Positions 14,819-49,865 are shown, counted from the stretch's first letter. The stretch is DNA of 64,000 nucleotides from Alphaproteobacteria bacterium (GCA_965228895.1 OZ245842.1:512001-576000); one strand, 5' to 3'. Notes: generated from the sequence alone by a model not told the origin. Made by a program: numbers and translations.

Positions 14819-15072
14819 TTCCCTGATACGGCACAAAAACTCCCTGATCGGTGACGAGGTTTCCCTGTTCGGTTGTTTAGGGAACTCTACTTTAGTCTAT
14901 TGAAATGACTGCCGGACCTTGGCCGTAAAACACAGATTTCGCCGAAAGCTGCAAAAGTTCCCTGTGTTTTCCCTGTAAACGGGGAAGTCCCCGCAGAGAC
15001 GGGTTCTATCGAGACTGCCCGCACCGCCATTCTCCAGCACCACCATTCTTCATCATGCAGATTATGTGAACA
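14819..15072. mobile_element. Integrative-element end remnant with dif-like site (copy A)
   Basis: Repeated TTCCCTG boxes, CCCTGTAAACGGGGAA, GAGACTGCCCGCACCGCCA, then ATTCTTCATCA-TGCAGA-TTATGTGAACA (15045-15072). Confidence 0.6.
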
Positions 15073-15280
15073 CTACTCCAACTGCGTTGGCCCGGGTGCC
15101 GACGCTTCATACGGCCCTTGCTTCTGACAGGAGTCTCGTGAGTTTGGAAGGGGCGACAGAGCCCTGACAAAGTTCGGTGCGGTAAGCAGCGGGGCCGGCT
15201 GGAAGAATGGCGCCTCGATGGCGGTCTCCGGCAACTTCGAAATCCCAGACTTAAGCCTGCGATCTATTCGCACACGATGT

Positions 15281-15333
15281 TGATTGACACATCAGTCAAC
15301 TGCTGCCTATGGTTTTGACTGATGTGTCAATCA
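15281..15333 (+). promoter_or_regulatory. Sigma70-like promoter with twin TTGAC-N6-GTCAA operator boxes
   Basis: Perfect 19-bp inverted repeat (15281-15299 / 15315-15333). TTGACA (15284) -18 nt- TATGGT (15308). Confidence 0.7.
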
Positions 15334-15448
15334 GGTACGGATAACAGCGTATCGGCGGGCACGCTAAAGGGGCCATTAGCGAGTAAAGAAGCCGGAACAA
15401 CGGGCTCAAAAACGTCCCTGATGCGCACGAAGTAGGGAGGGCGAACCG

Positions 15449-16321
15449 ATGTGTGCGATTTGCGGATGCGGCGGCGACAACCCGGGGGGCCGAACCGGCG
15501 CGCATGATAGCCGCCGTGCCGCCCATCACCACGACCACCACCACAACCACCACCACAACCACGATCACATCCATGCCGCCGGCGCGGCGCTCGACGAGAC
15601 GAACCTTGTCGAAATCGAGAGAGACCTTCTTTCCAAGAACGATCGCTTCGCCGCGGCGAACCGGGATCGCCTTGCCCATGATCGGGTGCTAGCCCTCAAT
15701 CTCGTGTCGAGCCCGGGCGCGGGAAAGACTTCGCTGCTGGTCGAAACGGTCGGGTCGCTCCGCGGCAAGATGCCGGTCGGCGTCATCGAAGGTGACCAGG
15801 AAACCAGCAACGACGCCGAGCGCATTCTCGCCACCGGTGTCGATGCTGTTCAGATCAACACCGGACGTGGCTGCCACCTGGACGCCCACATGGTCGGCCA
15901 TGCCCTGGATGATCTGCCGTCGCTGGCCGGCGGCGTCGTGTTTATTGAAAATGTCGGCAACCTCGTATGCCCGGCCGCCTTCGATCTGGGCGAGGCCGCG
16001 AAGGTCGTGATCCTCTCCGTGACCGAAGGCGACGACAAACCGCTCAAGTATCCCGACATGTTCGCCGCCGCGCAGATGATGATCCTGAGCAAGATCGACC
16101 TTCTGCCCCATGTCGATTTCGATCCCGATCGCGCGCTGGAACGGGCGCGGCGAATCAACCCGAATCTCGATTGTCTGCGGCTTTCGGTACGCAGCGGAGA
16201 TGGCATGACGGCATGGTTCGATTGGATCGAGCAACGCGCTGCTGCTGTCGGCGGTTCGCCGCGGACCACCGGCCGCGACGCATGCCCCGTGACGAAGGGG
16301 GAGGCCCATCGCCATGCATGA
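15449..16321 (+). CDS. hypB: Nickel incorporation GTPase HypB with His-rich N-terminus
   Basis: MCAICGC, poly-His stretch, [33 protein letters not shown]. Confidence 0.95.
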
Positions 16322-16736
16322 ATTGGCGTTGGCGCGCAGCCTGGTTGAGATGGTCGATGACTACGCCGCGCAGAATGGCGACCAGGTGGTGCGGCGTATC
16401 CATGTCCGGCTGGGTCAAATGTCGGCCATGACGCGCGCCCTCTATTTCTGTTTTGACTCCGTGTCGCGCGGCACGCGTAGCGAAGGCGCCGTGCTCGATA
16501 TCGAAGAGATACCGCTGACCGTCAGGTGCCGCCACTGCGACGAAATCAAGACGCCGAGCGGGCGCTACAACTTCCGTTGTCCCGACTGCGGTATGCCGAC
16601 GCCTGAAATGATCACCGGCCGGGAGATGCAGTTGACCGCGATCGAACTAGGCCCACCGATCACGGCGGTGCCCGCCACCGACTCCGATATGTCTCACACC
16701 CCTCACGGAGAGCCGCATGCCGTCCCAATCTCCTGA
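16314..16736 (+). CDS. hypA: Nickel metallochaperone HypA
   Basis: MHELALA start and two CxxC motifs (CRHC, CPDC). Confidence 0.95.
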
Positions 16737-17796
16737 CGCCTGGGACTTCGTTCCCCACCAACATCGCGGGCCCCATCGAGAGGTCGAGCCGGACGCCCAC
16801 ATCCGTTCGCCAAGCAAACACAACGGTCCGTTCAAGTCGCCGGGGTTGCGGACCTTTATGGGCGCGCCCTATTGCGAGCCCGACCGCGAGAAGGTTCGCG
16901 CTGCAGGCGCCAAGGTCTGCTTCCTGGGGGCGCCCTGGGATCAGGGCACGATCGTGCGGACCGGCACGTCGAGCGGGCCGGAAGGGGTGCGCGAAGCCTC
17001 GACCCACTACTTCCCTTACATGTTTGAGTACGACGTCGACCTGCTGACGTTCTTCAACGTTGTCGATTGCGGCGACATTCCCATCGTTCCCGGCAACAAC
17101 CCGCTGTCACAGGCCTATATGTGCGACTACGTCACGGAATGCCTGGAAGGCGGCGCCAAGGTCATTCTTGTCGGCGGTGACCATTCGGTGCCGATCCCCG
17201 GCGCGCGGGCGTTGTCGCAGTATCTCGGTCGCCACAAACCCGATGCCACGATGGGGTACCTGCACGTCGACTGTCACCTTGACGCCGCAGTCGATTGGGG
17301 CGGCATCGAAATCACCAACGCGTCGGGACCGCCGGAAGCCCTCAAGCTGCCCAACTGCAACGCCCGGAACATGGCACATATGGGTTCGCGCAACGGTCTC
17401 AATCCCAAGGACTGGCTGGATTTCTGGATCGACAACGATATCCCGATCGTGCCGATGTCCGAGGTCGTGGAGAAGGGTATCGAGCCGTGCACACGGTTCA
17501 TCCTGGACCGGGCGTGGAACGGGACCGAGGCGCTCTACTTCTCCTGGGATACCGATTCCCTTGACGCCAGCTGTATGCCGGGGACCAGTTGTCCTGAGTG
17601 CTACGGCATCAAGGCGCGCGAGGCCATTCAGGTGGCCCGCATTCTAGGCGAGTACGGCGCCGATGTGCTGGAACTGGCGGAACTCGCGCCGGTGTTCGAC
17701 GCCAGCCAGATGAGCACGAAGCTCGCCTGCAACTTGATCTACCACTACCTCGGCAGTCGTGCCGCGACGCTTCGCGACCGTGGCGAGGCGCCATGA
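16717..17796 (+). CDS. Ureohydrolase, catalytic subunit of metformin/dimethylguanidine hydrolase-like enzyme (MfmA/DmgH-alpha-like)
   Basis: Metal motifs GGDHS, DCHLD, WDTD intact. PHQHRGP, YFPYMFEYDVDLL and HMGSRNGLNPKDW match MfmA as I recall it. Confidence 0.8.
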   Translation: MPSQSPDAWDFVPHQHRGPHREVEPDAHIRSPSKHNGPFKSPGLRTFMGAPYCEPDREKVRAAGAKVCFLGAPWDQGTIVRTGTSSGPEGVREASTHYFPYMFEYDVDLLTFFNVVDCGDIPIVPGNNPLSQAYMCDYVTECLEGGAKVILVGGDHSVPIPGARALSQYLGRHKPDATMGYLHVDCHLDAAVDWGGIEITNASGPPEALKLPNCNARNMAHMGSRNGLNPKDWLDFWIDNDIPIVPMSEVVEKGIEPCTRFILDRAWNGTEALYFSWDTDSLDASCMPGTSCPECYGIKAREAIQVARILGEYGADVLELAELAPVFDASQMSTKLACNLIYHYLGSRAATLRDRGEAP

Positions 17797-17848
17797 CCCC
17801 TGCATCAATTCCACTCGCTCAACAATCGTTCCGTCAGGAGACCTGTCC

Positions 17849-18892
17849 ATGAATCCGGCCAAGGCATTCTTGCATCTGTTCTCACCCCTGGGCGGCGACG
17901 ACGCGGATAACTACCGTTCTCCGGGGCAGATTTCGTTCCTGCGCGCACCCTTCGTATCGGTTGACAAGGACGCGCTGCAGAACGCGAACGCAACCTACGC
18001 CTATGTCGGCGCGCCCTATGACGAGGGCAATGTCGGCAAGCCCGGTTGCGAAGACGGCGCACGCGAGTTTCGTGTCGCGTCGCTGGACTATTTTCCTTAC
18101 TGGTTCGAGTTCAACGTCGACCTGCATGGATCGTCCATCGATTGCGGCGATGTCCAGATGCCGCGCGTCAACCCGAAGGTCGCGCACGAGCGTATCTATG
18201 ACACCGTGCGTACTGTTCTTGATGCCGGCCTGACGCCGATTATCTGTGGCGGCGACCGCTCCATCTCGATCCCAGCGGCAAAGGCGCTGTCCGATCATCT
18301 CGGAAAGGACCGCAAGATGGGCTACATGCATCTGGGCGCCCATCTGGACATGGCCGACACCTGGGCAGGCGAAGAGAACGTCAGCACCTGTGCCCTGGCG
18401 CGCATCACCGAACTAGAGAATTTGAACCCGGCGAACGTCGCTCATATCGGCGCCCGGAATTCGTTCAACCCGAAGGACCATCTCGACTTGGTCAAACACC
18501 GTGGCATCCGGTTCCATCCGATGTTCGAGGTCCTTGAGCGGGGTATTGACGACGTTATGGATGAGGCGGTCGAAAACGTCTGGACCGGCACCGATGGCCA
18601 GTACGTCAGCTTCAACTTCAACGTCATGGATTCATCGGCCGCACCTGGCGTTACGGCGACTGAGAGCGGTGGCCTTGAATCCCGGGAAATCATGCGTGTC
18701 GCCGCCAAAATCGCTGATCGTGGCGGACCGGCGGTCATCGACGTAACCGAGCTTTGCCCTATGTTCGACATCAGCGGATCGACATCGCGCATGGCCGTCT
18801 GCGTCGTCCTGCGAATCATGGCCGGCATCGCCGCCAGGGACGGCGCCGTGATCGACGACACCATTCGTCGGCCCGGGTGGCAACACGGCTAA
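17849..18892 (+). CDS. Ureohydrolase-fold non-catalytic subunit (MfmB/DmgH-beta-like)
   Basis: AGGAG RBS then MNPAKAFLHLFSPLGG. Metal ligands degenerate: GGDRS, GAHLD, FNFN. Confidence 0.8.
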   Translation: MNPAKAFLHLFSPLGGDDADNYRSPGQISFLRAPFVSVDKDALQNANATYAYVGAPYDEGNVGKPGCEDGAREFRVASLDYFPYWFEFNVDLHGSSIDCGDVQMPRVNPKVAHERIYDTVRTVLDAGLTPIICGGDRSISIPAAKALSDHLGKDRKMGYMHLGAHLDMADTWAGEENVSTCALARITELENLNPANVAHIGARNSFNPKDHLDLVKHRGIRFHPMFEVLERGIDDVMDEAVENVWTGTDGQYVSFNFNVMDSSAAPGVTATESGGLESREIMRVAAKIADRGGPAVIDVTELCPMFDISGSTSRMAVCVVLRIMAGIAARDGAVIDDTIRRPGWQHG

Positions 18893-18986
18893 CTGAGAGT
18901 GCTCACCCGCCACGGCTCGACCTGTGGCGCGGTCACGAACAAGAAACGTACGAGGCTTCACAACGATCAATAAGGGGAGATGTGGT

Positions 18987-20087
18987 ATGACTATGCGGAC
19001 CAACAAGTTCAGGCATTCAGTAAGCCGACGTTCATTCTTGTCGGGCGCGGCCGGCGCCGCGTCGGTTGCGGCGACGGGTTCGCTTCTGCCGAGCCGGGCC
19101 CATGCCGCCGGCGAGCTCAACATTCTCGTTTGGTGCGATCACGCGGATTCGAAACTGCTCGAGCCTTTCGAGCAGGCGCACGACGTCAAGGTCAATGCCA
19201 AGACCTATGAGGGGACCGGCACCGCGCTTTCCATTCTCGAACAGTCGGCGCCGGGCGACTGGGACGTCATCGTTATCGACGCGCCCGATGTTCCGCAGGT
19301 CGCGGATCTCGGTATCCTGACCGAACTGTCGGATGACATCGCGCCGTGGAACGACATCTTCCCGCAATTGCGCGACGCCCCATACACGCGCGTCGACGGC
19401 AAGGTTTACGCGATCCCCGAAAAGTTCGGCTATTACGGCTTCTGCTACAACAAGGATGCCGTGGACGCGGCCGACGCCAAGAAAGGCGATATCGCCTGGA
19501 ACGAGAAGTACAAGGGCCGTATCGGCGTCTACGACTACTACTTCCCGGTCATACAGATGGTCGGGCTCTCAATGGGCAAGAAGCCGGCCGATATCACCGC
19601 CGATGACCTCGACGCTATTCGCGAGCGGCTGCTCGCCATGAAACCCAACGTCAAAATGATCGGCGATATCGTGAGCGTGCAGAATGCGCTCGTCACCGGA
19701 TCGGTCGATGTCATCGTCGGCGGCGCGGAGTTCGCCGTTTCCAATCTGATGCCGAGCAACCCGCAGCTTGACTGGGTGATCTCCGATGATGGTGGCCTGA
19801 TCTGGAACCAGGGCATCGGCATCTTGAGCGACAGCAACCGTCAGGATCTGGCGGCCGAGTTCATCAAGTGGATCATGAGCCCGAAAGGCCAGGGTCTGCT
19901 GGCGACGTCGGAGTGTTTCTGGGCGATGCCGGCCAACGAGACCGCTGAAATCTCCGATGCCGACAAAGCCAATCTGCGCTGGGACGATCAGGCTGACTTC
20001 CTCGCGCGGTCCGAGGTCTCCCTGTTGCCCGATGTCGAGATGGACGCGGCCATGCTCGATATCTGGACGGAGTTCCTGCAGTCCTAG
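18987..20087 (+). CDS. PotD/PotF-like ABC substrate-binding protein, Tat signal
   Basis: SRRSFL Tat motif, LNILVW, polyamine-binding fold features. GGGGAG RBS. Confidence 0.85.
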   Translation: MTMRTNKFRHSVSRRSFLSGAAGAASVAATGSLLPSRAHAAGELNILVWCDHADSKLLEPFEQAHDVKVNAKTYEGTGTALSILEQSAPGDWDVIVIDAPDVPQVADLGILTELSDDIAPWNDIFPQLRDAPYTRVDGKVYAIPEKFGYYGFCYNKDAVDAADAKKGDIAWNEKYKGRIGVYDYYFPVIQMVGLSMGKKPADITADDLDAIRERLLAMKPNVKMIGDIVSVQNALVTGSVDVIVGGAEFAVSNLMPSNPQLDWVISDDGGLIWNQGIGILSDSNRQDLAAEFIKWIMSPKGQGLLATSECFWAMPANETAEISDADKANLRWDDQADFLARSEVSLLPDVEMDAAMLDIWTEFLQS

Positions 20088-20200
20088 CTTTTGGGGGGCT
20101 GACTGTTGGACGAGCCCAATCTTAGGACGTTCGACGGGCCCGGCGCTTATCAGCGTCGGGCCGGCGTCGCGCGGATCAAACTGGTTGTGATCAGGTTTCG

Positions 20201-21097
20201 ATGACCAGCCGCGTCGACAGCGATGACCGGCGCGCCTTGGGTGATGTCGATAAGCTCGGGGGCCTCGCGCTGACGCGATGGATGGTCTATCCGGCGCTGA
20301 TCTTCTCTCTGTTGTTCTTCGTCACGCCGTTCCTGGTCATGGCGGCCGTCAGCCTGTGGCAGCGGCTTCGCGGGAAGCTTGAAGCCACATGGACGTTCGC
20401 CAACTACGAAAAGTTCTTCTCGCGCGACTACCTCGTCGAGGCATTGATCAATTCGATCGAGGTGACCGTGATAACCACGGTCGTCAGCATCGTGATCGCC
20501 TATCCGCTGGCCTACATCCTGGCTTATCGCGTTCCCGTCAGATGGCAGAAGGTGTTGCTGATACTCGCGATCCTGCCGTTCTGGACCGCTTATGTCGTGC
20601 GTTCGTACAGCTGGCTTCTGGTGCTGTCCGACAACGGCATCATCAACTCGTTCCTGATGTCGCTGGGCGTGATCGCCGAGCCCCTGACCCTGGCCTATAC
20701 GCGCGGCGCCACCATCCTTGGGTTTGTTCATTTCTTCACGATGCTTCTGACCCTGACGATCTATGCGAACCTGATTCAGATTCCGCGTTCCTACCGTCAT
20801 GCCGCGGCCGACCTGGGCGCTTCCTCCCTGCAGATCTTCCTGCGCGTCACACTGCCGCTCAGCATACCCGGTGTCGCCGTCGGTGCGTTTCTGACCTTCG
20901 TCATTACAATCGGTGACTACATCACGCCGCAGATCCTGGGCGGCAACACCGAGGTCCTGGTGCCCCAGGCCATCATTCTGCAGATCTCGCGCGCCGCTGA
21001 TTTCCCCATGGCGTCGGTGATGAGCGTGACACTCATGGTCGTCGTCACGGGCATCTATTTTGCCTGCGCGCGCTACCTCAAGATGGACCGGCTATGA
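20201..21097 (+). CDS. PotB-like ABC permease
   Basis: Hydrophobic; LPFWTAYVVRSYSW; AAADLGAS (EAA loop). Confidence 0.9.
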   Translation: MTSRVDSDDRRALGDVDKLGGLALTRWMVYPALIFSLLFFVTPFLVMAAVSLWQRLRGKLEATWTFANYEKFFSRDYLVEALINSIEVTVITTVVSIVIAYPLAYILAYRVPVRWQKVLLILAILPFWTAYVVRSYSWLLVLSDNGIINSFLMSLGVIAEPLTLAYTRGATILGFVHFFTMLLTLTIYANLIQIPRSYRHAAADLGASSLQIFLRVTLPLSIPGVAVGAFLTFVITIGDYITPQILGGNTEVLVPQAIILQISRAADFPMASVMSVTLMVVVTGIYFACARYLKMDRL

Positions 21098-21888
21098 TCA
21101 GGACGTGGCTCGGACAAAGCGCGGCCGGCGCCTATCTGCTGCTGGGCCTCGCCTTCATCTATCTGCCGGTGGTTATCCTGGTTCTGTTTTCCTTCCAGGA
21201 TGGCGACCTGCCGGTGCCGCCGTTCGAAGGGGTAAGTCTGCAGTGGTACGACAAGCTGTTCGCCAACGAACGCCTGCTCGATGCCCTCATCAACTCGGTC
21301 ATTGTCGCGGTGCTGTCGGGTGCGGCCACCACCTTGCTCGGTTTCCTGGCAGCCTACAGTCTGTCCAGGTCGCCGGTGCGCTTTGAAGGCGCCGCGCGCT
21401 TCCTGTTGATCGCGCCGATCACCGTGTCCTATCTGATCATCGGCATGGGCCTGCTCACGACGTTCAGCGTGGTCGGCATCTCAAAGTCGCTCTTCGCGGT
21501 CGGTATCGGCCATGTCGTGATCAACCTGCCGCTTGCCTTTGCGATTATCTATTCGCAGATGAGCGAGCGTCACAAAAACATCGACGCGGCGGCCCATGAT
21601 CTCGGCGCCAGCGACCTGCAGACGATCCTGCTTGTCTCCGCACCGATGATGAAAGTGCCGCTGATCGCGTCTTTCTGCTTGGCCGCGACGCTATCATGGG
21701 ACGAATTCATCATCGCGTTCTTGCTGAGCAGCTTCGAGGTCACGTTGCCGGTCATTATCTTCGAAATGCTGCGGGCCGGTCTGACGCCGGAGGTCAATGC
21801 GGCGGGAACGCTTGTTTTCGCTATCTCACTCACGATCATCATGATCGCAGCGGCCGCTTTGTTGTTCAGGCGGGGGGATGAACGATGA
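21094..21888 (+). CDS. PotC-like ABC permease
   Basis: FIYLPV, AAAHDLGAS, LSWDEF, PEVNAA. Confidence 0.9.
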   Translation: MIRTWLGQSAAGAYLLLGLAFIYLPVVILVLFSFQDGDLPVPPFEGVSLQWYDKLFANERLLDALINSVIVAVLSGAATTLLGFLAAYSLSRSPVRFEGAARFLLIAPITVSYLIIGMGLLTTFSVVGISKSLFAVGIGHVVINLPLAFAIIYSQMSERHKNIDAAAHDLGASDLQTILLVSAPMMKVPLIASFCLAATLSWDEFIIAFLLSSFEVTLPVIIFEMLRAGLTPEVNAAGTLVFAISLTIIMIAAAALLFRRGDER

Positions 21889-22955
21889 ACGACAGCCTTG
21901 TCGCCTTAAAAAATGTCCGAAAGAGCTACGGCGAGCTCGTCGCGCTGAACGACGTCGACCTCTCGATCGATCAGGGACAGTTTGTCGTCCTGCTTGGTCC
22001 CTCGGGCAGCGGCAAAACGACGCTGCTGTCGATCCTCGGCGGTTTTACCACGCCGACGTCGGGCGAGGTGTGGATCGATGGGCAGGACGTGACGACCACG
22101 CCGCCCGCGCAACGCCCGACCGTCACGGTATTTCAGGACTATGCGCTTTTTCCGCATATGACGGTCAGCGAGAATGTCGGTTTCGGTCTGGCCATGCGCA
22201 GGGTTCCACGGGGGCAGCGCAAACAACGGGTCGAGAGTGTTCTGGAAACCGTCGGGCTTCACGATCTCGGTGGCCGCCGGATTGACCAGCTTTCCGGCGG
22301 CCAGCGCCAGCGTGTCGCGCTGGCGCGCGCCATCGTTGTTGAGCCGGCGGTTCTGCTCCTCGACGAACCCCTGGGCGCGTTGGACCTTAAGATCCGGCAG
22401 CAGATGCAGGAGGAACTGGTCGAGCTGCAGCGCCGGATCGAGACGACGTTTGTGCACGTCACCCACGATCAGGAGGAGGCCATGAACGTGGCCGACGTCG
22501 TCGTCGTGATCAACAAAGGCGCCATCGAGGACGTCGGACCGCCGGAGCGCGTCTATCTGCGCCCGGCCAGCCTGTTCACAGCGACGTTCATGGGCGACAG
22601 CAACATTCTAAGCGGCAAATCGATCGCATCGAATGGCGTTCAGGCGACGATCGACACGCCTTTGGGCGCCATCGTGGTCGACGGTCATATTGACGTCGGT
22701 ACGACCGCGCACCTATCCGTCCGGCCGGAGCAGATCAAGGTCGGTGCGGCGCAGTCTGACGACATGCTCAGTCTGGGTGACGCTCAGATATCGACCATGG
22801 TCTTTCAGGGCGCCCATCGGCGCTGCCACGCCCGGCTCGGGCCAAATCAAGACGTCGACTTGCTGTTATACGTACCGCCTGAGCAGGACTTGACGCCGGG
22901 CCAATCGGTCTCCATTCAGGTGCGCGCCGCCGACATCGTGCTCTTGCGGGATTGA
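21885..22955 (+). CDS. PotA-like ABC ATPase
   Basis: GPSGSGKT, LSGGQRQR, LLLDEP, THDQEEA. Confidence 0.93.
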   Translation: MNDSLVALKNVRKSYGELVALNDVDLSIDQGQFVVLLGPSGSGKTTLLSILGGFTTPTSGEVWIDGQDVTTTPPAQRPTVTVFQDYALFPHMTVSENVGFGLAMRRVPRGQRKQRVESVLETVGLHDLGGRRIDQLSGGQRQRVALARAIVVEPAVLLLDEPLGALDLKIRQQMQEELVELQRRIETTFVHVTHDQEEAMNVADVVVVINKGAIEDVGPPERVYLRPASLFTATFMGDSNILSGKSIASNGVQATIDTPLGAIVVDGHIDVGTTAHLSVRPEQIKVGAAQSDDMLSLGDAQISTMVFQGAHRRCHARLGPNQDVDLLLYVPPEQDLTPGQSVSIQVRAADIVLLRD

Positions 22956-23018
22956 TGGCCTGTGGGCCGCGTTCGGCTGCCTCGGAAGGATGACGGTGAG
23001 TAGCTTCAAAGGTCGTAA

Positions 23019-23636
23019 GTGATGGTAATGACGCAGGACAACAAACGGAATGCGACGGCCGAAGCGCTACTGGAGGTGGCGCTCGAACTCTTTTCCACGC
23101 GGGGATATGCGGATGTCACGATCCAGGAGATCGCGCAGAGGACGAACACGACCTATTCGCTGACATACTACTATTTCAAGAACAAAGAAGAGCTGTTCCA
23201 CGCGGCCGTCGCTTATTCCATCGATCAGGCGATCGAGAATTACAAGCAACTGGAAGGGCGTCACAGCTCGCCCGTCGAACTGATTGACGACTGGTTTGAC
23301 AGCAACATCACCTACGCGGAATCGCTAAAGCGCGCCGTTAAGATCATGTTCGAGTTCTCCGAGAAGCGAGACGGGTCGCCTTCAGTCGCGAGCTATGTCG
23401 AGTACTTCTATGAGTTCGAACGTAGTCTTCTGGCCGATTGCCTGCGGCGTGGTGTCGAGCAGGGTATGTTTGAGTGCGCGTCGCCCGAGTCCACGGCGGC
23501 TTTTATCTCAACGCACATTGACGGCATTTTTCATGGTGCTCTTGTCCGTCCTGGTTTGAACATCGAAGCGGCGATGTCGGAGTTGAAGACCGTCCTCTGG
23601 CAACTTCTCAAGTTCGAACCGCCAAAGGAGCACTAG
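23019..23636 (+). CDS. TetR-family regulator
   Basis: LFSTRGYADVTIQEIA..YYYFKNKEELF HTH. Confidence 0.9.
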   Translation: MMVMTQDNKRNATAEALLEVALELFSTRGYADVTIQEIAQRTNTTYSLTYYYFKNKEELFHAAVAYSIDQAIENYKQLEGRHSSPVELIDDWFDSNITYAESLKRAVKIMFEFSEKRDGSPSVASYVEYFYEFERSLLADCLRRGVEQGMFECASPESTAAFISTHIDGIFHGALVRPGLNIEAAMSELKTVLWQLLKFEPPKEH

Positions 23637-24103
23637 TTGGCATTCAGTCACGAGCCCGACAAGCGAAACTCAAAACGGCAGGCCAAGACGCTTGAGGGTT
23701 TCCGCCTTTGCGGCGTAGCCCATTTCGTTTGGCTGGATTGTTCTCCTGACGCATCAAGGAACATCGCTGATCGGACGACGACAGACCTAATTCGATTGGG
23801 TAGGGAGGTTCCAGCTCCGCCATTGAAACAGCGCCAGGAACTTACCCAACAAACCAAAGGTCTGACAGGAAACGTGATATCTCTCAGATCGTTGCCGATT
23901 TGCGGGTGATCCAGTTGGATACGGGTTGGCAGTTAGCCCAATCCACGTCTTTCCACCGTGCATATCATGGCTCTCGGGGAAGAGGGATCTGGATGTGGCG
24001 TGCTCGTACTGGCTTTCGCAACGATCGCTTCTGACTCTGGACATCCGCTATCGATCGAACGGGACGACGCTGCTTAGGTCGTGTTGGATTTTTCCCGGTT
24101 TTT

Positions 24104-24936
24104 CTAACTCGACCTTCCTCCCGTCCCCCGTAAACGGGCGACCTTGCTGAGAAGGTCGAACCAGAAAGGCGCCCCCAGGCTGATAGCGGCGACCGTGATG
24201 GCCCAACCCAGAACTGTCTTGAGCCATTCCACAAGTCCGACCGGCGGTTCGTTCCACCCAATTGGAAACATCTCTAGCCTTTGCAGGGTATCCGTCATCT
24301 CCTCGTTTGATGTCGTTGAGTCCGCAACCACTTCTGCTTGGGCTGCGAGCTGCGTGCGCAAGGCATCATTACTCCAGAGCTGTTCGACAAGGTGTATGGA
24401 GCTGGCGTTCGTCGCGATCGTGACGGCCGTGGCGATGACAAAGATGATCACCTTGACGTGCCGGGCATACCATCCAGACATCCTCGTCATACCCCCATCA
24501 AACCATGAGGCCAGGCGGTCTTTGAAACGTTGGCCACGTCTTCGCCTTGTGTCAGCCAAACGTCGAGGATGTTCTTAATCGGGTTATCGGTTTCGATCTT
24601 TCCGATGACGTCGCGAACTTCGTCTGCCGTACACGCCACGTATGATTTCTCGGCGTTATCCCTGGCAGTCAACTCGAGGAGAACGGTGCTCAGAGTCTCC
24701 GGTGCAATGTATGACGGCAGCTTGCCGTCTTTGGCCGGGTTCCCAATCAACGGATGGCGGTAGACCCTTTGAGCTTACTGATCACCGTCCAACCGCCTGA
24801 TACCGGCGTTGAGGTTTTTGGACCTCGGTCCATACATGCTGGCAATCCATTCCTGAACGGAGGATGCGACCAAACTCAGCACGATATAGAAAAGAATGGT
24901 GCCGAGGGCGATGTCGATAGCGGGATGATCAAGCAT
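24104..24936 (-). pseudogene. Disrupted membrane protein (SLGAPFWFDLL-type hypothetical family)
   Basis: ATG 24936 MLDHPAIDIALGTILFYIVLSLVASSVQEW; in-frame TAA at 24775-24777; frameshift near 24530 into the WFDGGM..SLGAPFWFDLL frame. Confidence 0.7.
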
Positions 24937-25129
24937 CTTGGTCTCCATCAATGTCTGCTCGAACCTTAGGAAACGTTCTTCACAACGTGGTGCTTGCGGC
25001 CCAGAACCGTCTATCCCGTGCTGAAGACAGCATGTGTCAGGTCGTCATTACGGCTGTGCACTCGTTTGGCGCTCCAGGATCATGGCGTCTACCTGGGCCA
25101 GATTGCTTCGTAACTCTTCCGCATGGTCG

Positions 25130-25365
25130 TCGGTGTTGTCCGCGTCGGCGTAGAAGTGCTGACCCAAGGCTGTTTTGCGCTGCCGCCCAGTAGAACGGCA
25201 CGCGCTCCAGGGTCTACTCTTCCAAGGTCGCCTGAAATGCCGACACGGCATCTTCAGCGTGAGCCGAGTCGCCGCTTCGCCCGCCCAGCGCCGTCAGCGC
25301 GTTGCCCAAATTGTTCTGCGCCATCGCCCAGTCGAGCGGCAGGCGGTCACGCGGATCAATACACA
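25130..25365 (-). pseudogene. TPR-repeat protein fragment
   Basis: Minus strand reads RDRLPLDWAMAQNNLGNAL..LEE*TLERVPFYWAAAQNSLGSAL, with an internal stop. Ends approximate. Confidence 0.65.
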
Positions 25366-25403
25366 ATGGCCCAAGTCTAGGGGGCTAGGACACGGCGAGA
25401 TAC

Positions 25404-25513
25404 TTCCCTGACGAGCTGAGTTGCTTCCCTGTTAACAGGGAAGTTTCGACAAAGATGGGCTCGCAGTGGACTGCCCGTGCCACCAATTTCCCATAGTGCA
25501 GATTATGGCATGA
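25404..25513. mobile_element. Element-end remnant with dif-like site (copy B)
   Basis: Palindrome TTCCCTGTTAACAGGGAA (25425-25442), GACTGCCCGTGCCACCA, then ATTTCCCATAG-TGCAGA-TTATGGCATGA (25486-25513). Confidence 0.6.
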
Positions 25514-25769
25514 TGCGCGAAGGCTATGGTTTGCGGCGATGGTTGAGTTGAATTTTGGGAACCAACGGCGGACGATTTTGTATGAGCCGTCGATGCCGTG
25601 TTCGGCCCGCATCATCTCGACGTTACGCAGGGACAACGCGAAACTGGCATAGAGCCAGAGCGTGTCGGGGATGACCTGAGGTGAGGGTTGATGTCGGCTG
25701 TGCGAGATGTCTTGCATCTGACGGCAGCAGCAGCCGATCGTTGCGGCAGCTCGTTAGTGTGACATTGCC
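25514..25769 (-). mobile_element. IS6-family remnant (one terminal repeat and degraded transposase N-terminus)
   Basis: LWLYASFALSLRNVEMMRAEHGIDGSYKIVRRWFPKF resembles IS6 transposase N-termini. GGCAATGTCACAC end at 25769. Confidence 0.75.
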
Positions 25770-25793
25770 TCGAACCAATCTTAGCATAAGACC

Positions 25794-26720
25794 ATGCCAA
25801 TTCTGCTCCCAGACTTTCCTTCGTTCAGCTCACTGGTTGCTTTGGACAGTGTCGTGCGGACCGGAAGCTTCGCGGCGGCGGGGCGCGAGCTTCATGTCAG
25901 CGAGGTCGCGATAAATCGGAAGGTCGCCGAACTGGAAGCATGGCTCGGCACAGATCTGGTTGTCCGTCGACGGCCGCGAATTGTGGTAACGGACGATGCC
26001 AAGGCGATTGCATCGGTGTTTCGAAACGAAACGCAAAAGATTCGCGATGAACTCAGCCGCATTCGACGTCTCAAGAGATCCACCAATCGCGTGACCGTCT
26101 ATGTGTCGACGGCATTCTCGCTTTTTTGGTTGTCTCCTCGAATTCACCGCTTGCATGACCAACATCCGAACCTTGAACTCAACATCGTATCAAACGTTCG
26201 CTCAGACCGTTTCGACCCCGAAGAATGCGACATGGCCATCGTCTATACGGACCAAGAGATAGATGGATTCGAGAATATTCTGCTTTTTCATGATGACATC
26301 GTCCCGGTCGCTAGCCCCCAATATTTGAAATCTCGCAAGAGGCGCAAGCATTGTGGCGATTTCTCCCAAGACACCCTTTTATGCCTCGCCAAAAGCAACA
26401 GTCTGTTTGTCGATTGGGATTTCTGGTTCGAAGCCACCGGTTACGTTGGTCAACCCGGTCAACACCGCGAAGTCTTCAACGATTATGGGCCGATGATCAT
26501 GGCTGCCATCGAAGGCATCGGCGTTGCGATGGGATTTCGTCGGGGTATCGCGCTGGCGATCGAGGATCATCGGCTTGTTGAAGTCGTAAACACGAGCGTC
26601 CCTGCGCCCGGCGACTACAGACTTTTGGTCAGTAAGAAAAGAAAACGTAATTCACCCGAAACGGTGGCTGTGTTTCGCGACTGGATCATCGGCGAAGCTC
26701 GCAAGGGTTCTGAAACATAA
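25794..26720 (+). CDS. LysR-family regulator (GcvA-like)
   Basis: GSFAAAGRELHVSEVAINRKVAELE; FWLSPRI; AAIEGIGVAM. Confidence 0.88.
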   Translation: MPILLPDFPSFSSLVALDSVVRTGSFAAAGRELHVSEVAINRKVAELEAWLGTDLVVRRRPRIVVTDDAKAIASVFRNETQKIRDELSRIRRLKRSTNRVTVYVSTAFSLFWLSPRIHRLHDQHPNLELNIVSNVRSDRFDPEECDMAIVYTDQEIDGFENILLFHDDIVPVASPQYLKSRKRRKHCGDFSQDTLLCLAKSNSLFVDWDFWFEATGYVGQPGQHREVFNDYGPMIMAAIEGIGVAMGFRRGIALAIEDHRLVEVVNTSVPAPGDYRLLVSKKRKRNSPETVAVFRDWIIGEARKGSET

Positions 26721-27035
26721 ACCCGAGTTGTTCCGGCGTGCTGTGACCACACCTCTGGAGCTTCGAAATTTTATCCCGCCCCTCAACAGCGGTCCGGATC
26801 AATCCGAACGTCAAGTTGCGTCATAAGAACCAATCAGTAGATTTTCGCGTCCCATCATATCTGCAACCGTATGACGGCTCGGCGCTAATGCGCCTAAGCA
26901 CCACGACGCAGTCTTGGCGATATCGGAATCACCGATGCATCGCGCTGGACCTGGCGGAGACCAGGCACGGGCGTTTTTCGTCCGGCTACGTCGGGGATTA
27001 CGGCAAGCAGGCCATCCAAGCGGAAGGGAACAGTC

Positions 27036-28313: not shown

Positions 28314-28476
28314 TCACGACACAGGCGACGCACCTTGTCACAAGCTCGAACGCACGACATGGGCTACTGGGCCTGTCGTGCGGCGCTACGCAATGACGTG
28401 GGTCGTGTCGCGCCATCCGGCGAATGTGTCGCTCCTTCTGGCGCGGTGCTCGGGCTCAGGTCCCTTGATATGTGAA

Positions 28477-28513: not shown

Positions 28514-28843
28514 CAGGTGTTTTTGACCCGAACGTCTTCAAGCTGGATCGCGTTTGGCGCTCTGCCGACAGAATCGTTGGAAAAACGGAAGTCGAAATCA
28601 TGCGCAATTTGATGATCGGACCGGTCTAGAGGCTTGCAGCTAAGGATCCGACGTCGTGATGCGGTTCATCGCATGCCCGGCAAGTATTGGATCGTCTTGT
28701 CTGGAGTCCGAAGACCAAAGCGGGATCGTTTCGAACCGGTCGACAGCACGGTCTGCGCATAACGCGTGCGGCCCTGAACAGTGACGTTGCCGATGCGACC
28801 GGTCATCGGCCAACCCATAAAACACCATAGAAGGAGACGCAAA

Positions 28844-34321: not shown

Positions 34322-34456
34322 AGCAGATCCCTTTTTGATGGAATCGCTTTGCGATGCGATCAAGACGGGTGAATCTGCTCTATTCATAGAAAAGAGCGGA
34401 TTCACGTCGTTAGCTGGAACCGTTGCGCGGCTCCAGCCAACAACGATCCGCTCTAA
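34318..34456. repeat. Double-hairpin REP/RIME-like element between convergent genes
   Basis: CTAGAGCAGATCC..GAATCTGCTCTA..AGAGCGGATTCAC..GATCCGCTCTAA. Confidence 0.8.
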
Positions 34457-42677: not shown

Positions 42678-44037
42678 GATCGCACCGTTGGCCGAAGGCG
42701 CTGGGGTCACCCGTGCGCTTGCCCGCTGGGTCGTCGACGTCGAGCGTGACGCGATCAGCGAACGCGCGTTGCGTTGCGCCAGCCATGCGCTCCTCGACTG
42801 GGTCGGGGTCACGCTCGCAGGACAGGCGGAACCACTCGTGGACATCCTGGTGCGCGACGCCGAGCGTAACGGCGAGCAGGGTGTCGCCCGTCTTATCGGA
42901 CGCCGTGCCGATGTTTCGCCGGCCTTTGCCGCACTGATCAACGGTGCGGCTTCCCATGCGCTCGACTTCGATGATGTCAATCAGCGTGTTCAGGGCCATC
43001 CCACCGTGGCGATTGTCCCGGCGCTCTTGGCGGCCGCGCCAGCTTGCGGGGCGACGGGCGCTGACCTTCTTGAGGGTATGGTGGTTGGGACTGAAGTCGC
43101 CTGCGCCGTGGGCGAGATGCTGGGGACGCCGCATTACGACCTCGGTTTTCATGCCACGGCCACGGTCGGAAGTTTGAGCGCAGCGACGGCTGTCGCAAGA
43201 CTGATGCGTCTGGACGAAGTCCAGACGGCAACCGCGTTGGGGCTTGCCGCGACGCAGGCAGCCGGTTTGAAGGCGAACTTCGGCACCATGGCCAAGCCGC
43301 TTCACGCCGGTAAGGCCGCGATGAATGGTTTGCTTGCGGCGCGCTGGGCTGGCGCGGGGCTCACTGCTTCGACGACAATTCTTGAAGCCGTACAGGGATT
43401 TGGCGCGGTCATGTCGACCGGCTTCAACGCCGATTTCTCGCCACCGTCGGATCAGTACGGTATCGAGCTCAACTGCTACAAGTTCTATCCAGCCTGTTAC
43501 TTCACCCACTCGGCCATCGCGGCGACCTGCGCCTTACGTGACGAACACGCGTTGTCTCCAGACGATATCGACAACGTTGTGGTTCATCTGCAGCCCCAGC
43601 ACGACAAGGTCTGTAATATTGCCGAGCCGAAGGACGGGCTGGGCATCAAGTTTTCCGTGCGCCATCTGGTGGCGATGGCCCTTGCGCGGGTCGAGGTCGG
43701 CGATATCCGCGTGTTCACCGAAGAGATGGCCGAACGTCCCGACCTCATTGCCTTGCGTGAACGGATCGCCTTCGCGGCTGCGTCGGTTCCGACCCGGTGG
43801 GCGGCGCGGGTCGAGATCCAATGTCGCGATGGACGCCGGCTCGCAAGCGATGAGGACGTGGGCATTCCTGCCGACGATCTCGATCGTCAGGAGGCGCGGC
43901 TGCTCGCCAAGTTCCTCGCTCTATCGGCGCCGAAGCTCGGAGAACAACGCAGTCATGCGCTAGCGGATTTTGTTCTTGGCATGGGCTCAGCCGCCGACAT
44001 GACCGGCCTGTTCAATGCCGCAAGTCCCGGCGACTGA
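42649..44037 (+). CDS. MmgE/PrpD family protein
   Basis: SHALDFDD, GHP, GFHAT, KPLHAG, KFYPAC. Start uncertain (42649 ATG or 42688 TTG). Confidence 0.87.
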   Translation: MSSASPNPTEIAPLAEGAGVTRALARWVVDVERDAISERALRCASHALLDWVGVTLAGQAEPLVDILVRDAERNGEQGVARLIGRRADVSPAFAALINGAASHALDFDDVNQRVQGHPTVAIVPALLAAAPACGATGADLLEGMVVGTEVACAVGEMLGTPHYDLGFHATATVGSLSAATAVARLMRLDEVQTATALGLAATQAAGLKANFGTMAKPLHAGKAAMNGLLAARWAGAGLTASTTILEAVQGFGAVMSTGFNADFSPPSDQYGIELNCYKFYPACYFTHSAIAATCALRDEHALSPDDIDNVVVHLQPQHDKVCNIAEPKDGLGIKFSVRHLVAMALARVEVGDIRVFTEEMAERPDLIALRERIAFAAASVPTRWAARVEIQCRDGRRLASDEDVGIPADDLDRQEARLLAKFLALSAPKLGEQRSHALADFVLGMGSAADMTGLFNAASPGD

Positions 44038-44050
44038 GGACGCAGCGGCC

Positions 44051-45529
44051 ATGAAAGACTACAGGATGTTCATCGGCGGGCACTGGTGTGATTCGGCATC
44101 GGAGTCATGGATCGACAGTGAGTTTCCCTACACAAGGGAACCGTGGTGCCGGATACCACGAGGCATTGCCGAGGACGCCAAGGCTGCCGTCGACGCTGCT
44201 GATGCCGCGTTCGACAATCCGGCGTGGCGTGATCTGCAGCCGGCGGGGCGCGCCAAACTGCTGTTTCGTCTTGCCGATCTGCTGGAAGCACGGGCCGATG
44301 AACTTGCGGAAGTCGAGAGCCGCGACAACGGCAAACGGATCGTCGAGACACGCGGACAGGCCCGGCGTCTGCCCGACTGGTACCGCTATTTTGGTGGTCT
44401 GGCCGATAAGATCGAGGGCGGTGTGGTGCCCAATGGCAGTCCCGACGTCCTGAACCTTACCCTGCGCGAGCCGTTGGGTGTGGTCGTCGCGATCACGCCC
44501 TGGAACTCGCCCCTCTTGCTCGCAGCGTGGAAGCTGGCACCCGCCCTTGCCGCAGGCTGTACCGTGATCCTGAAACCTTCCGAATACACGTCCGCCTCGT
44601 CCCTGGAACTGGCGGCGCTTTTCGAGGAAGCCGGCTTTCCGCCTGGCGTCGTGAATGTGGTGACCGGTTTCGGTCATGAGATCGGCGAGGCGCTCGTTGG
44701 TGATCCCCGGATCGCCAAGGTTTCGTTCACCGGGGGCGAGGCGGGGGGCCGGGCGGTCTACAAGCTCGCCGCCGAACACTTCCACGCTGTATCGCTGGAA
44801 CTGGGCGGCAAATCGCCCAACATCGTCTTCCAGGACGCCGAGATCGGCAACGCGGTGAACGGGATTACCGGCGGGATCTTTGCCGCGACGGGTCAGACCT
44901 GCATTGCCGGTTCCAGGCTGCTGGTGCATCGCTCGATCCATGACGAGGTTGTCGCGGGCGTTGTCGACGCTTCGGCATCGGTGCGCTGTGGCGACCCACT
45001 GGATGCCGCCACCCAAATGGGCCCCGTGGCGACCGGAGCACAGTTCGACAAGATCCTCGGCCACATCACAGCGGCCAGGTCAGAGGGTGCGACCTGTGTT
45101 CTGGGTGGTGAACCTGCGACCGGAGGCGCATGCGGCAACGGGCTTTTCATCCCGCCGACAATTTTCACCGATGTCACCAACACCATGGCGCTTGCCCGCG
45201 AAGAGGTGTTTGGACCGGTTCTGGCCGTCATCGGGTTCGACGATGACGAGGAGGCGATCGCCATCGCGAATGACACCGACTACGGCCTTGCTGCAGGCGT
45301 CTGGACCACCAGCATGCGCCGCGCCGTGCGCGTCAGCCGCCAACTGAAGGCCGGCACCATCTGGGTCAATACCTATCGCCAGGTCTCCCACGCCTCGCCG
45401 TTTGGCGGCTACAAGCGAAGCGGCATCGGACGCGAGAATGGTGTCGAGGCGATCAACGAATTCCTCCAGACCAAATGCGTCTGGTTCAACACGGGCGAAA
45501 CCGTGCCCAATACCTTCGATATGCGCTGA
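44051..45529 (+). CDS. Aldehyde dehydrogenase
   Basis: PWNSP, LELGGKSP, GQTCIAGSR, EEVFGP. Confidence 0.92.
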   Translation: MKDYRMFIGGHWCDSASESWIDSEFPYTREPWCRIPRGIAEDAKAAVDAADAAFDNPAWRDLQPAGRAKLLFRLADLLEARADELAEVESRDNGKRIVETRGQARRLPDWYRYFGGLADKIEGGVVPNGSPDVLNLTLREPLGVVVAITPWNSPLLLAAWKLAPALAAGCTVILKPSEYTSASSLELAALFEEAGFPPGVVNVVTGFGHEIGEALVGDPRIAKVSFTGGEAGGRAVYKLAAEHFHAVSLELGGKSPNIVFQDAEIGNAVNGITGGIFAATGQTCIAGSRLLVHRSIHDEVVAGVVDASASVRCGDPLDAATQMGPVATGAQFDKILGHITAARSEGATCVLGGEPATGGACGNGLFIPPTIFTDVTNTMALAREEVFGPVLAVIGFDDDEEAIAIANDTDYGLAAGVWTTSMRRAVRVSRQLKAGTIWVNTYRQVSHASPFGGYKRSGIGRENGVEAINEFLQTKCVWFNTGETVPNTFDMR

Positions 45530-46751: not shown

Positions 46752-46754
46752 CCC

Positions 46755-48095: not shown

Positions 48096-48156
48096 CCACC
48101 AAAACCTCTTTCCGGCAGCGCGGTAACGCGACGCATGCCGTGTGATGTAGCTGCCG

Positions 48157-49023
48157 ATGGAGACTGCCGTGACCACCTACAGGAAGCCCGAGCACTGGAA
48201 AGATCCGACCAAGAAGCTCTATCCACATCAGGTCATGTTCACCTGTCCGCCCAAGGATTTTTGTGGTGCGCCCACGGACTTCCTGCGTATGGCGCCCGAG
48301 ACCGTCGGCGTACACGGACGCATGATGCACGTGAACGATTACGAACACACGCTCGACCAGCGAAAGAAGAACTTCGCGTTGCTGGAAGAGTTCGTCGCGT
48401 GTTCCGCCGACGCGGGTGCTGATGTCTGCGGCCAGGTCGGCTCCAACTGGGTCCACGCCTCGGGTCTGGGGGTTGAGGGTATCCGGCAATTCTGCGAGCG
48501 GATGAGCGAAACATACGAGACGCCGTTTCACATGTCGGGCTACGCCATGGTGGAGGCCTTGCGCGCAGCGAACGTCGAGAAGGTCGCGTTGAACGCGGTC
48601 TATCACTGGCCGGACTGGTGGCAGGGTACGGTGGGATTTCTGCGCGAGGCCGGCTTTGACGTCGTGTGGGCCGGCAACTTCGTCGACCAGGGTTGGTTTG
48701 CGAGCCAGCACGAACTCGATGCTGAGATCTGGTGCTTCGATGAGGAACTTGCGGCGAAGTCGATGGCGTATGTCGCCGAACAGGCGCCCCAGGCCGACGC
48801 CTATCTCGCCAACGGTACGGCTCACTTTCGTCGCCCGTCCGATGGTGTCACCCAACGCTTCTGCGCTCTTGCACCCGACCTTGAGGTCATGCTGGGCAAA
48901 CCCGTCATCACCCACGACATCGCGCTCTATTGGCGCATCTTCAAGACGCTCGGCGTCGGTCCGGTGACCAGACAGGGACGGCTGCTGTCATCGCTTCAGG
49001 CCGTGCGCTCCTCGGCGGCCTGA
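48157..49023 (+). CDS. Maleate isomerase/arylmalonate decarboxylase (Asp/Glu racemase superfamily)-like protein
   Basis: AMVEALRAANVEKVAL, FLREAGFDVV, LEVMLGKPVITHD. Confidence 0.65.
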   Translation: METAVTTYRKPEHWKDPTKKLYPHQVMFTCPPKDFCGAPTDFLRMAPETVGVHGRMMHVNDYEHTLDQRKKNFALLEEFVACSADAGADVCGQVGSNWVHASGLGVEGIRQFCERMSETYETPFHMSGYAMVEALRAANVEKVALNAVYHWPDWWQGTVGFLREAGFDVVWAGNFVDQGWFASQHELDAEIWCFDEELAAKSMAYVAEQAPQADAYLANGTAHFRRPSDGVTQRFCALAPDLEVMLGKPVITHDIALYWRIFKTLGVGPVTRQGRLLSSLQAVRSSAA

Positions 49024-49076
49024 TGCCGTCGTGGTTCATCCACGAACCAAAGTAACGGCGGGCCTGGAGTAGGGGC

Positions 49077-49727
49077 ATGGCGCAAAGGGTCGATGTCTAT
49101 TGGTCGCACAACTCCCCCTATTGTTATCTGGCACTCGATCGGATTCTGGCGCTAAGCCGGCAGCCGGACGTTGACGTGGTCTTGCGTCTGGTCCTGCCGG
49201 GTCTAATGCGCAACGCCGACCGCTTCGTCGATGCCGAGCCGGTCGAAGAAGCCTACTTTCTGCGCGACGCCGCGCGCACGGCGGCGTTTCTGGGTGTTCC
49301 GTTCGGCTGGCCGCAGCCATGGCCTGTGGCATTTCTGGATGGAAATCTGTACCGCGCGGCGCCCGACCAGCCGCGTGCCTGGCGTCTCTACAATCTCAAT
49401 GCCGCCGCCCGGGAACAGGGCAGGGGCTGGGGTTTCATCGAACATGTGAGTCCGTTGATCTGGAACGGCCTGACCGAGGACTGGAACAAGGATGAGAACC
49501 TGGTCCCAGCGGTCGAGCGCGCGGGCTTCGATTACGCCGAACTTTGCCGGCGGGCCGATGAAGGAGCGGCGCAGTTCAAGCGCGACTTCGCCAGAAACCA
49601 CGAGGACCTGCTTGTGGCCGGTCATTGGGGCGTCCCGGTCTTCGTCGTCGATGGTGAACCGTTCTATGGCCAGGACCGTTTCGATCAGCTCTTGTGGCGC
49701 TTGGATCAATCAGCCGCGAGGCAGTGA
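49077..49727 (+). CDS. 2-hydroxychromene-2-carboxylate isomerase/DsbA-like (kappa GST) family
   Basis: YWSHNSPYCYL, HWGVP, FYGQDRF. Confidence 0.85.
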   Translation: MAQRVDVYWSHNSPYCYLALDRILALSRQPDVDVVLRLVLPGLMRNADRFVDAEPVEEAYFLRDAARTAAFLGVPFGWPQPWPVAFLDGNLYRAAPDQPRAWRLYNLNAAAREQGRGWGFIEHVSPLIWNGLTEDWNKDENLVPAVERAGFDYAELCRRADEGAAQFKRDFARNHEDLLVAGHWGVPVFVVDGEPFYGQDRFDQLLWRLDQSAARQ

Positions 49728-49780
49728 TCGATTTGTCGTGAGACGTAGCGCGATCAGAATGCCGATGCGATAGGGTACAG

Positions 49781-49865
49781 CCTGTCAACAGGGAAATCGC
49801 GGCACAGACAAGCTCGCTCGAGACTGCCCGCACCACCACTTTCCACAATGCAGATTATGTGGGGG
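49781..49865. mobile_element. Element-end remnant with dif-like site (copy C)
   Basis: CCTGTCAACAGGGAA, GAGACTGCCCGCACCACCA, then ACTTTCCACAA-TGCAGA-TTATGTGGGGG (49838-49865). Overlaps the mrpG stop. Confidence 0.6.

Follow-up and report, generated by a model that had tools for sequence, protein, structure and literature searches.

Three short intergenic repeats in a 64,000-nt stretch of DNA from an Alphaproteobacteria bacterium (GCA_965228895.1 OZ245842.1:512001-576000; hereafter the window, meaning the whole stretch analysed) raise the question of what joined the gene blocks between which they lie. A first-pass annotation of this DNA had described three copies of an element end fused to a dif-like site of the XerC/XerD recombination system, and had proposed that metabolic cassettes of 10-24 kb accreted there by repeated Xer-mediated integration. 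We found that the three repeats are diverged copies of one non-coding module of about 235 bp, situated between catabolic operons. We tentatively read them as fossil donor half-sites of a site-specific recombination module of the tyrosine-recombinase type, derived from mobile DNA of Alphaproteobacteria; this reading is possible, with somewhat less than an even chance of being right.

The three sequence blocks of the earlier description were borne out at their places by pattern search and by reading of the sequence, in three co-oriented copies on the plus strand. The hairpin block CCTGTnAACrGGGAA starts at 14972, 25428 and 49781, the block GACTGCCCGyrCCrCCA at 15013, 25469 and 49822 (three exact matches) and TGCAGATTATG at 15056, 25497 and 49849; copies 1, 2 and 3 end at 15066, 25507 and 49859, respectively. 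At up to one mismatch, TGCAGATTATG has three matches in the window against 0.68 expected, a count attained by 1 of 100 shuffles. For GACTGCCCGyrCCrCCA only the exact triple is informative, because four matches against 2.5 expected are obtained once three mismatches are allowed. The palindrome CATAA-N6-TTATG, at up to one mismatch, occurs four times against 0.38 expected: three of these matches are the cores of the copies, in which a single base of the CATAA arm deviates (CATCA, CATAG and CACAA), and the fourth, at position 2402, lies inside a gene. The three blocks are only part of the unit, which is larger than had been described and in copy 1 reaches left to 14819 via more TTCCCTG sites (11 in the window against 2.6 expected). 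The copies and their parts are as follows, where L025 denotes a fourth close copy, found in a metagenome-assembled genome of the Hyphomicrobiales.

14819-15066, plus strand: copy 1, full-length module (248 bp including a 16-nt internal duplication); L025 alignment and profile match 14791-15083, E 1e-61
14819-14884, plus strand: copy 1 distal array, with TTCCCTGA (14819), CTCCCTGA (14840) and the inverted pair TTCCCTG-N10-TAGGGAA (14861-14884); pattern search
14958-14986, plus strand: copy 1 proximal sites, TTCCCTGT and the hairpin-forming inverted pair TTCCCTGT-AAA-CGGGGAA; pattern search and folding
15013-15029, plus strand: copy 1 conserved block GACTGCCCGCACCGCCA; pattern match
15018-15052, plus strand: 16-nt tandem duplication, in copy 1 only; repeat family D11 and alignment gap
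15051-15066, plus strand: copy 1 core palindrome CATCA-TGCAGA-TTATG, with homology ending at 15066; pattern match and alignment
25399-25507, plus strand: copy 2, an internal-deletion form with distal sites 1-2 fused to the proximal hairpin; alignment to L025 and profile
25492-25507, plus strand: copy 2 core CATAG-TGCAGA-TTATG; pattern match
49781-49859, plus strand: copy 3, the shortest form (a stump), from hairpin to core; pattern match and profile
49844-49859, plus strand: copy 3 core CACAA-TGCAGA-TTATG; pattern match

Copy 1 and L025:5803-6041 align end to end over about 240 bp. TTCCCTG half-sites, five to seven in number and in a constant arrangement, make up most of the module; a conserved block follows, and then CATAA-N6-TTATG. 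Its distal part holds two TTCCCTGA sites 21-22 bp apart, the inverted pair TTCCCTG-N10-TAGGGAA and a spacer of about 75 bp. The proximal part adds two further sites, the second of which makes the hairpin TTCCCTGTTAACAGGGAA, followed by about 25 bp containing GGAGACGGGTTCGC and then by GACTGCCCGCACCACCA; the element edge reads TTTCCATAA-TGCAGA-TTATG. From the first TTCCCTG site to the core the distance is about 190 bp in both copy 1 and L025. In copy 2, positions 25399-25433 match the distal sites of L025 at 29 of 35 bases and run directly into the hairpin. Pairwise identity is 70-78% among the window copies and 78-81% between them and L025, which argues that the copies are old or independently acquired and not recent local duplications. 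Runs of 9-11 invariant nt are, by arithmetic, no surprise alone, since just four close sequences are available and about 59% of their columns do not vary.

Judged from its sequence, the array of direct and inverted TTCCCTG half-sites most likely provides binding sites for one DNA-binding protein. Substitutions in the hairpin are non-compensatory and its folding is no better than that of shuffled sequences save for one strand of copy 3, which favours protein-binding DNA rather than RNA. Several other identities were tried and rejected. A tRNA or tmRNA 3' end, prompted by the motif ...CCACCA, finds no counterpart in ARAGORN (0 genes) or in a conserved T-arm pairing. No known RNA family in Rfam matched the repeats, even when E values as high as 10 were admitted in the surroundings of copies 1 and 2; the few matches are unrelated eukaryotic families under their cut-offs. 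A structured RNA is opposed by the lack of compensatory changes and by z-scores of -0.03 to -2.4, among which only the minus strand of copy 3 stands out. Finally, a minus-strand frame is seemingly open over the copies, but stop codons, the 16-nt duplication and the absence of a synonymous bias oppose a coding sequence.

Relatives beyond the window were found by two routes. An exact-pattern scan of one genome per species, covering 185,579 species genomes, returned 29 loci, and about 33 are expected by chance on arithmetic grounds. One of the 29 is the true fourth copy, L025; the other 28 are chance matches, in all of which the remaining element is absent and among which the best profile E value is 0.012. 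Diverged forms escape the exact pattern, and four such distant relatives were reached in PLSDB by iterative blastn, namely on a Methylocapsa plasmid (L032), a Bradyrhizobium plasmid (L033) and two Sphingobium replicons (L034 and L035). The family set comprises eight loci (copies 1-3, L025 and L032-L035), in which L035 is entered as one replicon and its three sister strains are left out. A profile built from the eight members recovers exactly the three copies within the window. All four PLSDB relatives reside on plasmids or chromids, mostly with one copy per record, and share 50-67% identity with the window clade over the core stretch. The distal layout of copy 1, with its 20-22 bp spacing, recurs in L025, L032 and L033, and the array layout is conserved over five full-length copies from four genera. 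Also retained are the hairpin and a (G/C)ACTG motif, which reads GGACTG in L032, L034 and L035 and GCACTG in L033 and in a second partial copy at the same locus. Queried with copy 1, the plasmid database gave no match, and queried in near mode with window positions 13000-27000 it gave short gene-level matches only. The element was absent from all 50,697 records of the phage database, and a literature search by sequence string returned, among the matches listed, unrelated primer matches only.

What marks the repeats as ends of something mobile, as the first-pass annotation had suggested, is their edge. Alignment of the copies confirms that similarity stops just after TTATG: the three window copies and L025 end at the same base and continue into four unrelated flanks. 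Terminal inverted repeats are lacking, no target duplication is visible in the flanks of these four copies, and no second TTCCCTG cluster that could represent an opposite element end was seen at any locus, each having one cluster. The placement of the copies at changes in gene content holds in so far as all three are intergenic; only copy 2, however, lies in visibly degraded DNA of lower GC content (0.56 against 0.60-0.63). Copy 1 is located 45 bp downstream of a DHDPS-family gene and 380 bp ahead of an operon with cobW, hypA and arginase-family genes, and copy 3 lies 54 bp downstream of a DSBA-like gene. The following features adjoin copies 2 and 3 (ORF, open reading frame).

24104-25384, minus strand: degraded DNA left of copy 2, GC 0.56; ORFs, stops and GC
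24104-24935, minus strand: broken membrane-protein gene left of copy 2; ORFs and stops
25217-25384, minus strand: TPR-like fragment left of copy 2; TPR_10 E 8e-4, under the family cut-off
25511-25717, minus strand: IS6-family transposase gene fragment, N-terminal 66-69 residues, cut exactly at the copy 2 end; tblastn, NF033587 and BLASTP
49855-49857, minus strand: stop codon of mrpG (ORF 49855-50217) within TTATG of copy 3; ORF reading

The IS6 fragment aligns by tblastn with plasmid IS6 genes over residues 3-69 (52% identity), matches NF033587 over residues 8-64 (E 9e-8) and has a BLASTP match to ISMno6. An IS6 gene running through copy 2 to 25199 was considered and rejected, as the tblastn extension is a drift through two stop codons with few identities. 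Copy 2 is bordered by different broken genes left and right, which means that DNA was brought together at this module by at least one rearrangement; such flanks are incompatible with a simple insertion. At copy 3, the length of the MrpG tail varies by 5-36 residues among 15 homologues, so that the tails do not show where the mrpG stop codon came from or whether a CATAA was there before. Pfam assigns the 56 main ORFs of the window to catabolic, transport and housekeeping genes. No recombinase was detected among the 56 main and 5 small ORFs scanned, in line with the earlier claim that no integrase is left in the window; the sole mobile-element gene among them is the IS6 fragment. As a separate observation, positions 23637-28400 combine low GC (0.54-0.57), broken genes, the IS6 fragment, a LysR gene with a GC content at third codon positions (GC3) of 0.58 and a creatinase-like M24 gene with a GC3 of 0.64; this region is the clearest candidate in the window for recently acquired DNA.

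At six of the eight loci, mobile-element genes lie within about 2.5 kb of the module. L025 is accompanied by an IS66 TnpA fragment, and L033 lies between a trypsin-like protease with a GerE regulator and a resolvase pseudogene. In L035, the genes which the array faces encode a ParB-methylase (phrog_498), a DUF5681 protein and part of a large terminase (phrog_38, E 1e-41), and L032 has a homologous ParB-methylase pseudogene about 2 kb away. L034 is found with Drt1a (1230 aa, E 0) and with a fragment of a tyrosine integrase (210 aa); a DRT8 reverse transcriptase is also present, paired with its PD-(D/E)xK protein. No flanking genes are shared among the loci beyond the L032/L035 methylase and the right flank of L034 and L035. 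Three local details of this group may be added. In L033, the second partial copy (9227-9285, hairpin to ACTGC) lies 150 bp past the full module and about 380 bp before the resolvase pseudogene (9764-10091). In L034, a replicon of Sphingobium sp. TomTYG65, positions 1052-8483 form a small defence island beside the module, with two flanking choline dehydrogenase genes. In L035, a strikingly AT-rich stretch of about 120 bp (9600-9720), absent at the other loci, separates the array from the ParB-methylase gene.

Is the core of the module a dif site? Its geometry is 11-6-11 with inner CATAA...TTATG, perfect in L025 (CATAA-TGCAGA-TTATG), and to this extent the earlier description as dif-like stands; past the inner palindrome the likeness ends. 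For comparison we used five Rhizobiales difs, for example AAGTCGCATAA-GATAGA-TTATGGAACTT, as given by Carnoy and Roten (2009, PMC2731167). Whichever way they are oriented, the four sites agree with these at 12-18 of 28 positions; among themselves, the difs agree at 18-26 of 28. The host may not belong to the Rhizobiales, as the nearest named MrpG relatives are from Rhodospirillales and Kiloniellales (73-84% identity). Against the M. loti dif, a score of 16 of 28 or more is attained by 12 window 28-mers, a count from which the sites of the copies themselves were not removed. The central TGCAGA (reverse TCTGCA) agrees with the Rhizobiales difs at 2-3 of 6 bases only, conservation is lacking in the outer arm, which faces the variable flank, and each of the three window copies has a decayed inner arm (5-7 of 8 bases kept). 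In L025, the inner arm on the minus strand is TTATGGAA, identical to the opening 8 bases of the XerD arm of the published Rhizobiales difs except that of Bartonella, so that the XerD arm would belong to the module and the variable flank would contribute the XerC arm. Cumulative GC skew climbs through the window without a terminus-type turn at any copy; over 64 kb it is dominated by gene-strand effects, so that the missing turn weighs little. The reverse complement of the module end occurs nowhere in the window. Integrase-less Jorvik-like prophages of Alphaproteobacteria, according to PMC10589892, carry dif-like attP/attB sites at variable places away from the terminus. Altogether, the dif reading is weak and Xer is a candidate only.

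A site-specific recombination module fits best, because the edge is precise and common, the flanks are unrelated, inverted ends are lacking, the array is one-sided and mobile-element debris is present. The module has two parts, the array of half-sites, read as an accessory arm, and, about 85 bp beyond it at the very edge, a small core in which a centre of 6 nt (or 4 nt) separates two inverted arms of 5-6 nt. The module would own the accessory arm, the inner core arm and the crossover region, and the DNA past TTATG would be whatever was joined to it. Strand exchange by a tyrosine recombinase, either the host XerCD or a lost dedicated enzyme, may have made the edge. Given 1-3 changes in the inner arm per window copy, the sites would now be inactive.

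Several observations weigh against this model. No recombinase could be tied to the module, and no separate partner site or partner junction was found in the window or in L025. Copies 1, 2 and L025 also share a left edge, with differing left flanks; a small mobile unit would explain this better, and a half-site model does not predict it. Copies 1 and 3 lie in clean intergenic DNA with no further trace of a mobile element. The family is small, with its eight loci and a single true match in the exact-pattern scan. All four distant relatives keep the array and have lost the CATAA-N6-TTATG palindrome, so that the array may serve a function needing no core. In the Sphingobium lineage, L034 and L035 remain homologous for about 500-600 bp past the core side, and the edge there is not a junction; the shared stretch contains a terminator and part of a gene that matches a phrog "recombinase". 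No counterpart of this recombinase-like fragment was detected near the window copies by tblastn.

The rival closest to the earlier proposal is strict accretion by Xer, in which the host XerCD would have integrated integrase-less circular cassettes of 10.4 kb (15067-25507) and 24.3 kb (25508-49859) successively at a dif-like site and left three co-oriented hybrid sites in the style of an array of integrative mobile elements exploiting Xer (IMEX). The inner palindrome, the XerD-like arm of L025, the missing integrase, the prophage precedent and the low GC (0.56) and GC3 (0.58-0.64) immediately right of copy 2 are all consistent with it, and a tandem array predicts both the co-orientation of the copies and the absence of separate partner sites. 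The same array, however, wants related element ends right of copies 1 and 2, where the flanks are unrelated and one begins in the middle of an IS6 gene; taken together with the poor agreement with the Rhizobiales difs in total, centre and outer arm and with the lack of a skew turn in the window, this makes strict accretion unlikely. Similarly improbable is a portable promoter or operator, that is, an array of regulator sites which controls the array-side gene on the minus strand and spread with mobile DNA, the shared edges being accidents of common descent and later deletions. Conserved sequence without compensatory changes suits operators, and the distant relatives conserve exactly the array and not the palindrome. 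Moreover, the first array-side gene is on the minus strand and read away from the module at five of the eight loci (the TPR-like fragment at copy 2, IS66 tnpA in L025, a hypothetical gene in L032, the trypsin-like protease with its GerE regulator in L033 and Drt1a in L034), or at six counting the L035 methylase. Yet the genes served would all differ, the array of copies 1 and 3 faces the 3' end of a plus-strand gene 45-54 bp off, the copy 1 module has neither a sigma-70-like promoter nor a terminator, and decay does not predict a precise common edge with four different flanks.

A third possibility takes the module for a cos-like packaging-initiation region of a tailed-phage lineage, with the palindrome as terminase cut site, the TTCCCTG array as small-terminase sites and the edge as a rejoined cut end. 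In phage lambda, cosN-cosB lies upstream of Nu1. From the palindrome outwards come 45-85 bp, sites, a spacer of about 75 bp, more sites and then genes, an arrangement that mirrors lambda cos. The packaging-related genes faced by the L035 array and the homologous methylase of L032 point the same way, and a cut end would account for a precise one-sided edge without any recombinase. Terminase genes, however, occur at only one of the eight loci, and that locus, L035, is without the palindrome. Phage genes are absent from the window, as is the element from the phage records, the shared left edge is left unexplained, and it would be unparsimonious to suppose that one and the same end was captured four times independently and every time cut back to 250 bp or less; we therefore consider this origin very unlikely. 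The shared left edge is better served by a small non-autonomous transposable element that forms neither inverted ends nor a target duplication and would rely, for example, on an enzyme of the IS110, IS91 or IS200/IS605 type from another place in the genome. In copies 1 and 2 and in L025, both edges are discrete and the flanks differ on the left as well as on the right, and the co-oriented, intergenic copies without inverted ends or duplication are what such an element would leave. Against it stand the two different broken genes beside copy 2, where one interrupted gene would be expected, the lack of a conserved end hairpin besides that of the array, and site arrays, which are not known to be typical of those classes. 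The family is also rare, with 3 copies in 64 kb and one match in the genome scan, and we give this explanation little credence.

Among known systems, the closest analogies are cer/psi, the internal recombination site (IRS) of Tn4430 and attI, like which the architecture may work; membership in each fails on the features compared. With cer/psi, which join a XerCD core to about 160-180 bp of accessory sequence, the module shares a total size of about 230-250 bp, a one-sided accessory arm, a small 11-6-11-like core with inner CATAA/TTATG and independence from a nearby recombinase gene. Its accessory length of about 190 bp in copy 1 and L025 agrees as well, as a match of architecture only, and the four PLSDB relatives share with these sites a home on plasmids or chromids. 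In contrast, the core arms are not intact and conserved, the outer arm varying and the core being absent in L032-L035, and the accessory-side arm looks more XerD-like than XerC-like, the reverse of the arrangement in cer/psi. TTCCCTG is not known as an ArgR, PepA or ArcA site. Like the module, the Tn4430 IRS and attI pair an inverted-arm core with accessory repeats that lie to one side of it, and the accessory motif TTCCCTGA resembles the inner core arm TTCCATAA at 6 of 8 bases. Those sites measure about 65-116 bp and lie beside their recombinase gene; here, the arm alone takes up about 190 bp, with no recombinase next to it.

With IMEX, for which tandem arrays in one orientation are known, and with Jorvik-like prophages, the module shares a dif-like attachment sequence and, by the Pfam scan of the window, the lack of an own integrase. 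The cargo differs, being catabolic operons of 10-24 kb without phage or replication genes, and the likeness to dif is confined to the inner palindrome. Instead of two bounding dif-like sites with one at the host dif, we found only three co-oriented copies, and the flanks of the window copies are not related element ends. Modules of Acinetobacter plasmids bounded by pdif sites are gene modules between short Xer-type sites with no recombinase inside, flanked by inversely oriented XerC/D and XerD/C sites. All three sites of the window lie on the plus strand, each with a 190-bp arm, on a contig of about 5.5 Mb. A lambda-type cos is approached in L035 only, where an interrupted array of sites points to packaging genes; seven of the eight loci are without terminase genes and L035 is without the palindrome. 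A position directly upstream of terminase genes is found in L035 only, and the window has no terminase. As an end of a miniature inverted-repeat transposable element or DDE transposon, the module lacks an inverted end partner in the window and a visible target duplication. For Jorvik-like phages, placement away from the terminus is reported (PMC10589892).

If the repeats are real recombination sites, they would mark how large catabolic blocks assemble in free-living Alphaproteobacteria without a travelling recombinase, and they would offer a sequence signature for spotting such joints in other genomes. A broader idea, which we consider quite unlikely, is that they represent a so far undescribed, gene-less "junction module" of Alphaproteobacteria, in which an array for a host factor and a minimal Xer-type core would let the host recombinase stitch catabolic cassettes of 10-25 kb in tandem into the chromosome, and which would be reused by phage-like and defence elements on plasmids and chromids. 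If true, such a module would be the chromosomal, metabolic counterpart of pdif modules and IMEX arrays. Even as fossils, the repeats flag an unnamed conserved non-coding element with a putative protein-binding array; in several genera this element keeps company with phage remnants and DRT defence genes.

The window holds further features of interest. Between copies 1 and 2, positions 15449-23636 form a tight operon with a CobW-like GTPase, HypA, two arginase-family genes, an ABC transporter (substrate-binding protein, two permeases and ATPase) and a TetR regulator; by its layout, this is a putative nickel-dependent guanidino-compound hydrolase cluster. SBP_5 and aldehyde dehydrogenase paralogues with 70-80% DNA identity are found on both sides of the repeat copies, at 869-5080 versus 28781-30433 and 44015-45529 (families D3, D7-D9 and D12). 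A second repeat family occurs at 11400-11475, 30443-30581 and 34318-34455, consisting of palindromic units of about 65-76 nt (CTAGAGCGGAT...ATCCGCTCT) that lie directly 3' of genes and are doubled at two of the three places; two sets bracket an AcnX/Rieske/HTH-cupin block. These units resemble rhizobial intergenic mosaic or repetitive extragenic palindrome (REP)-like elements. Finally, Rfam reports PYLIS_3, the pyrrolysine insertion sequence of mttB, at 8491-8590 (45.1 bits against a cut-off of 38), inside an MttB-family gene (7480-8979) that is open throughout under translation table 11; the match probably reflects conservation of coding sequence in a non-pyrrolysine homologue.

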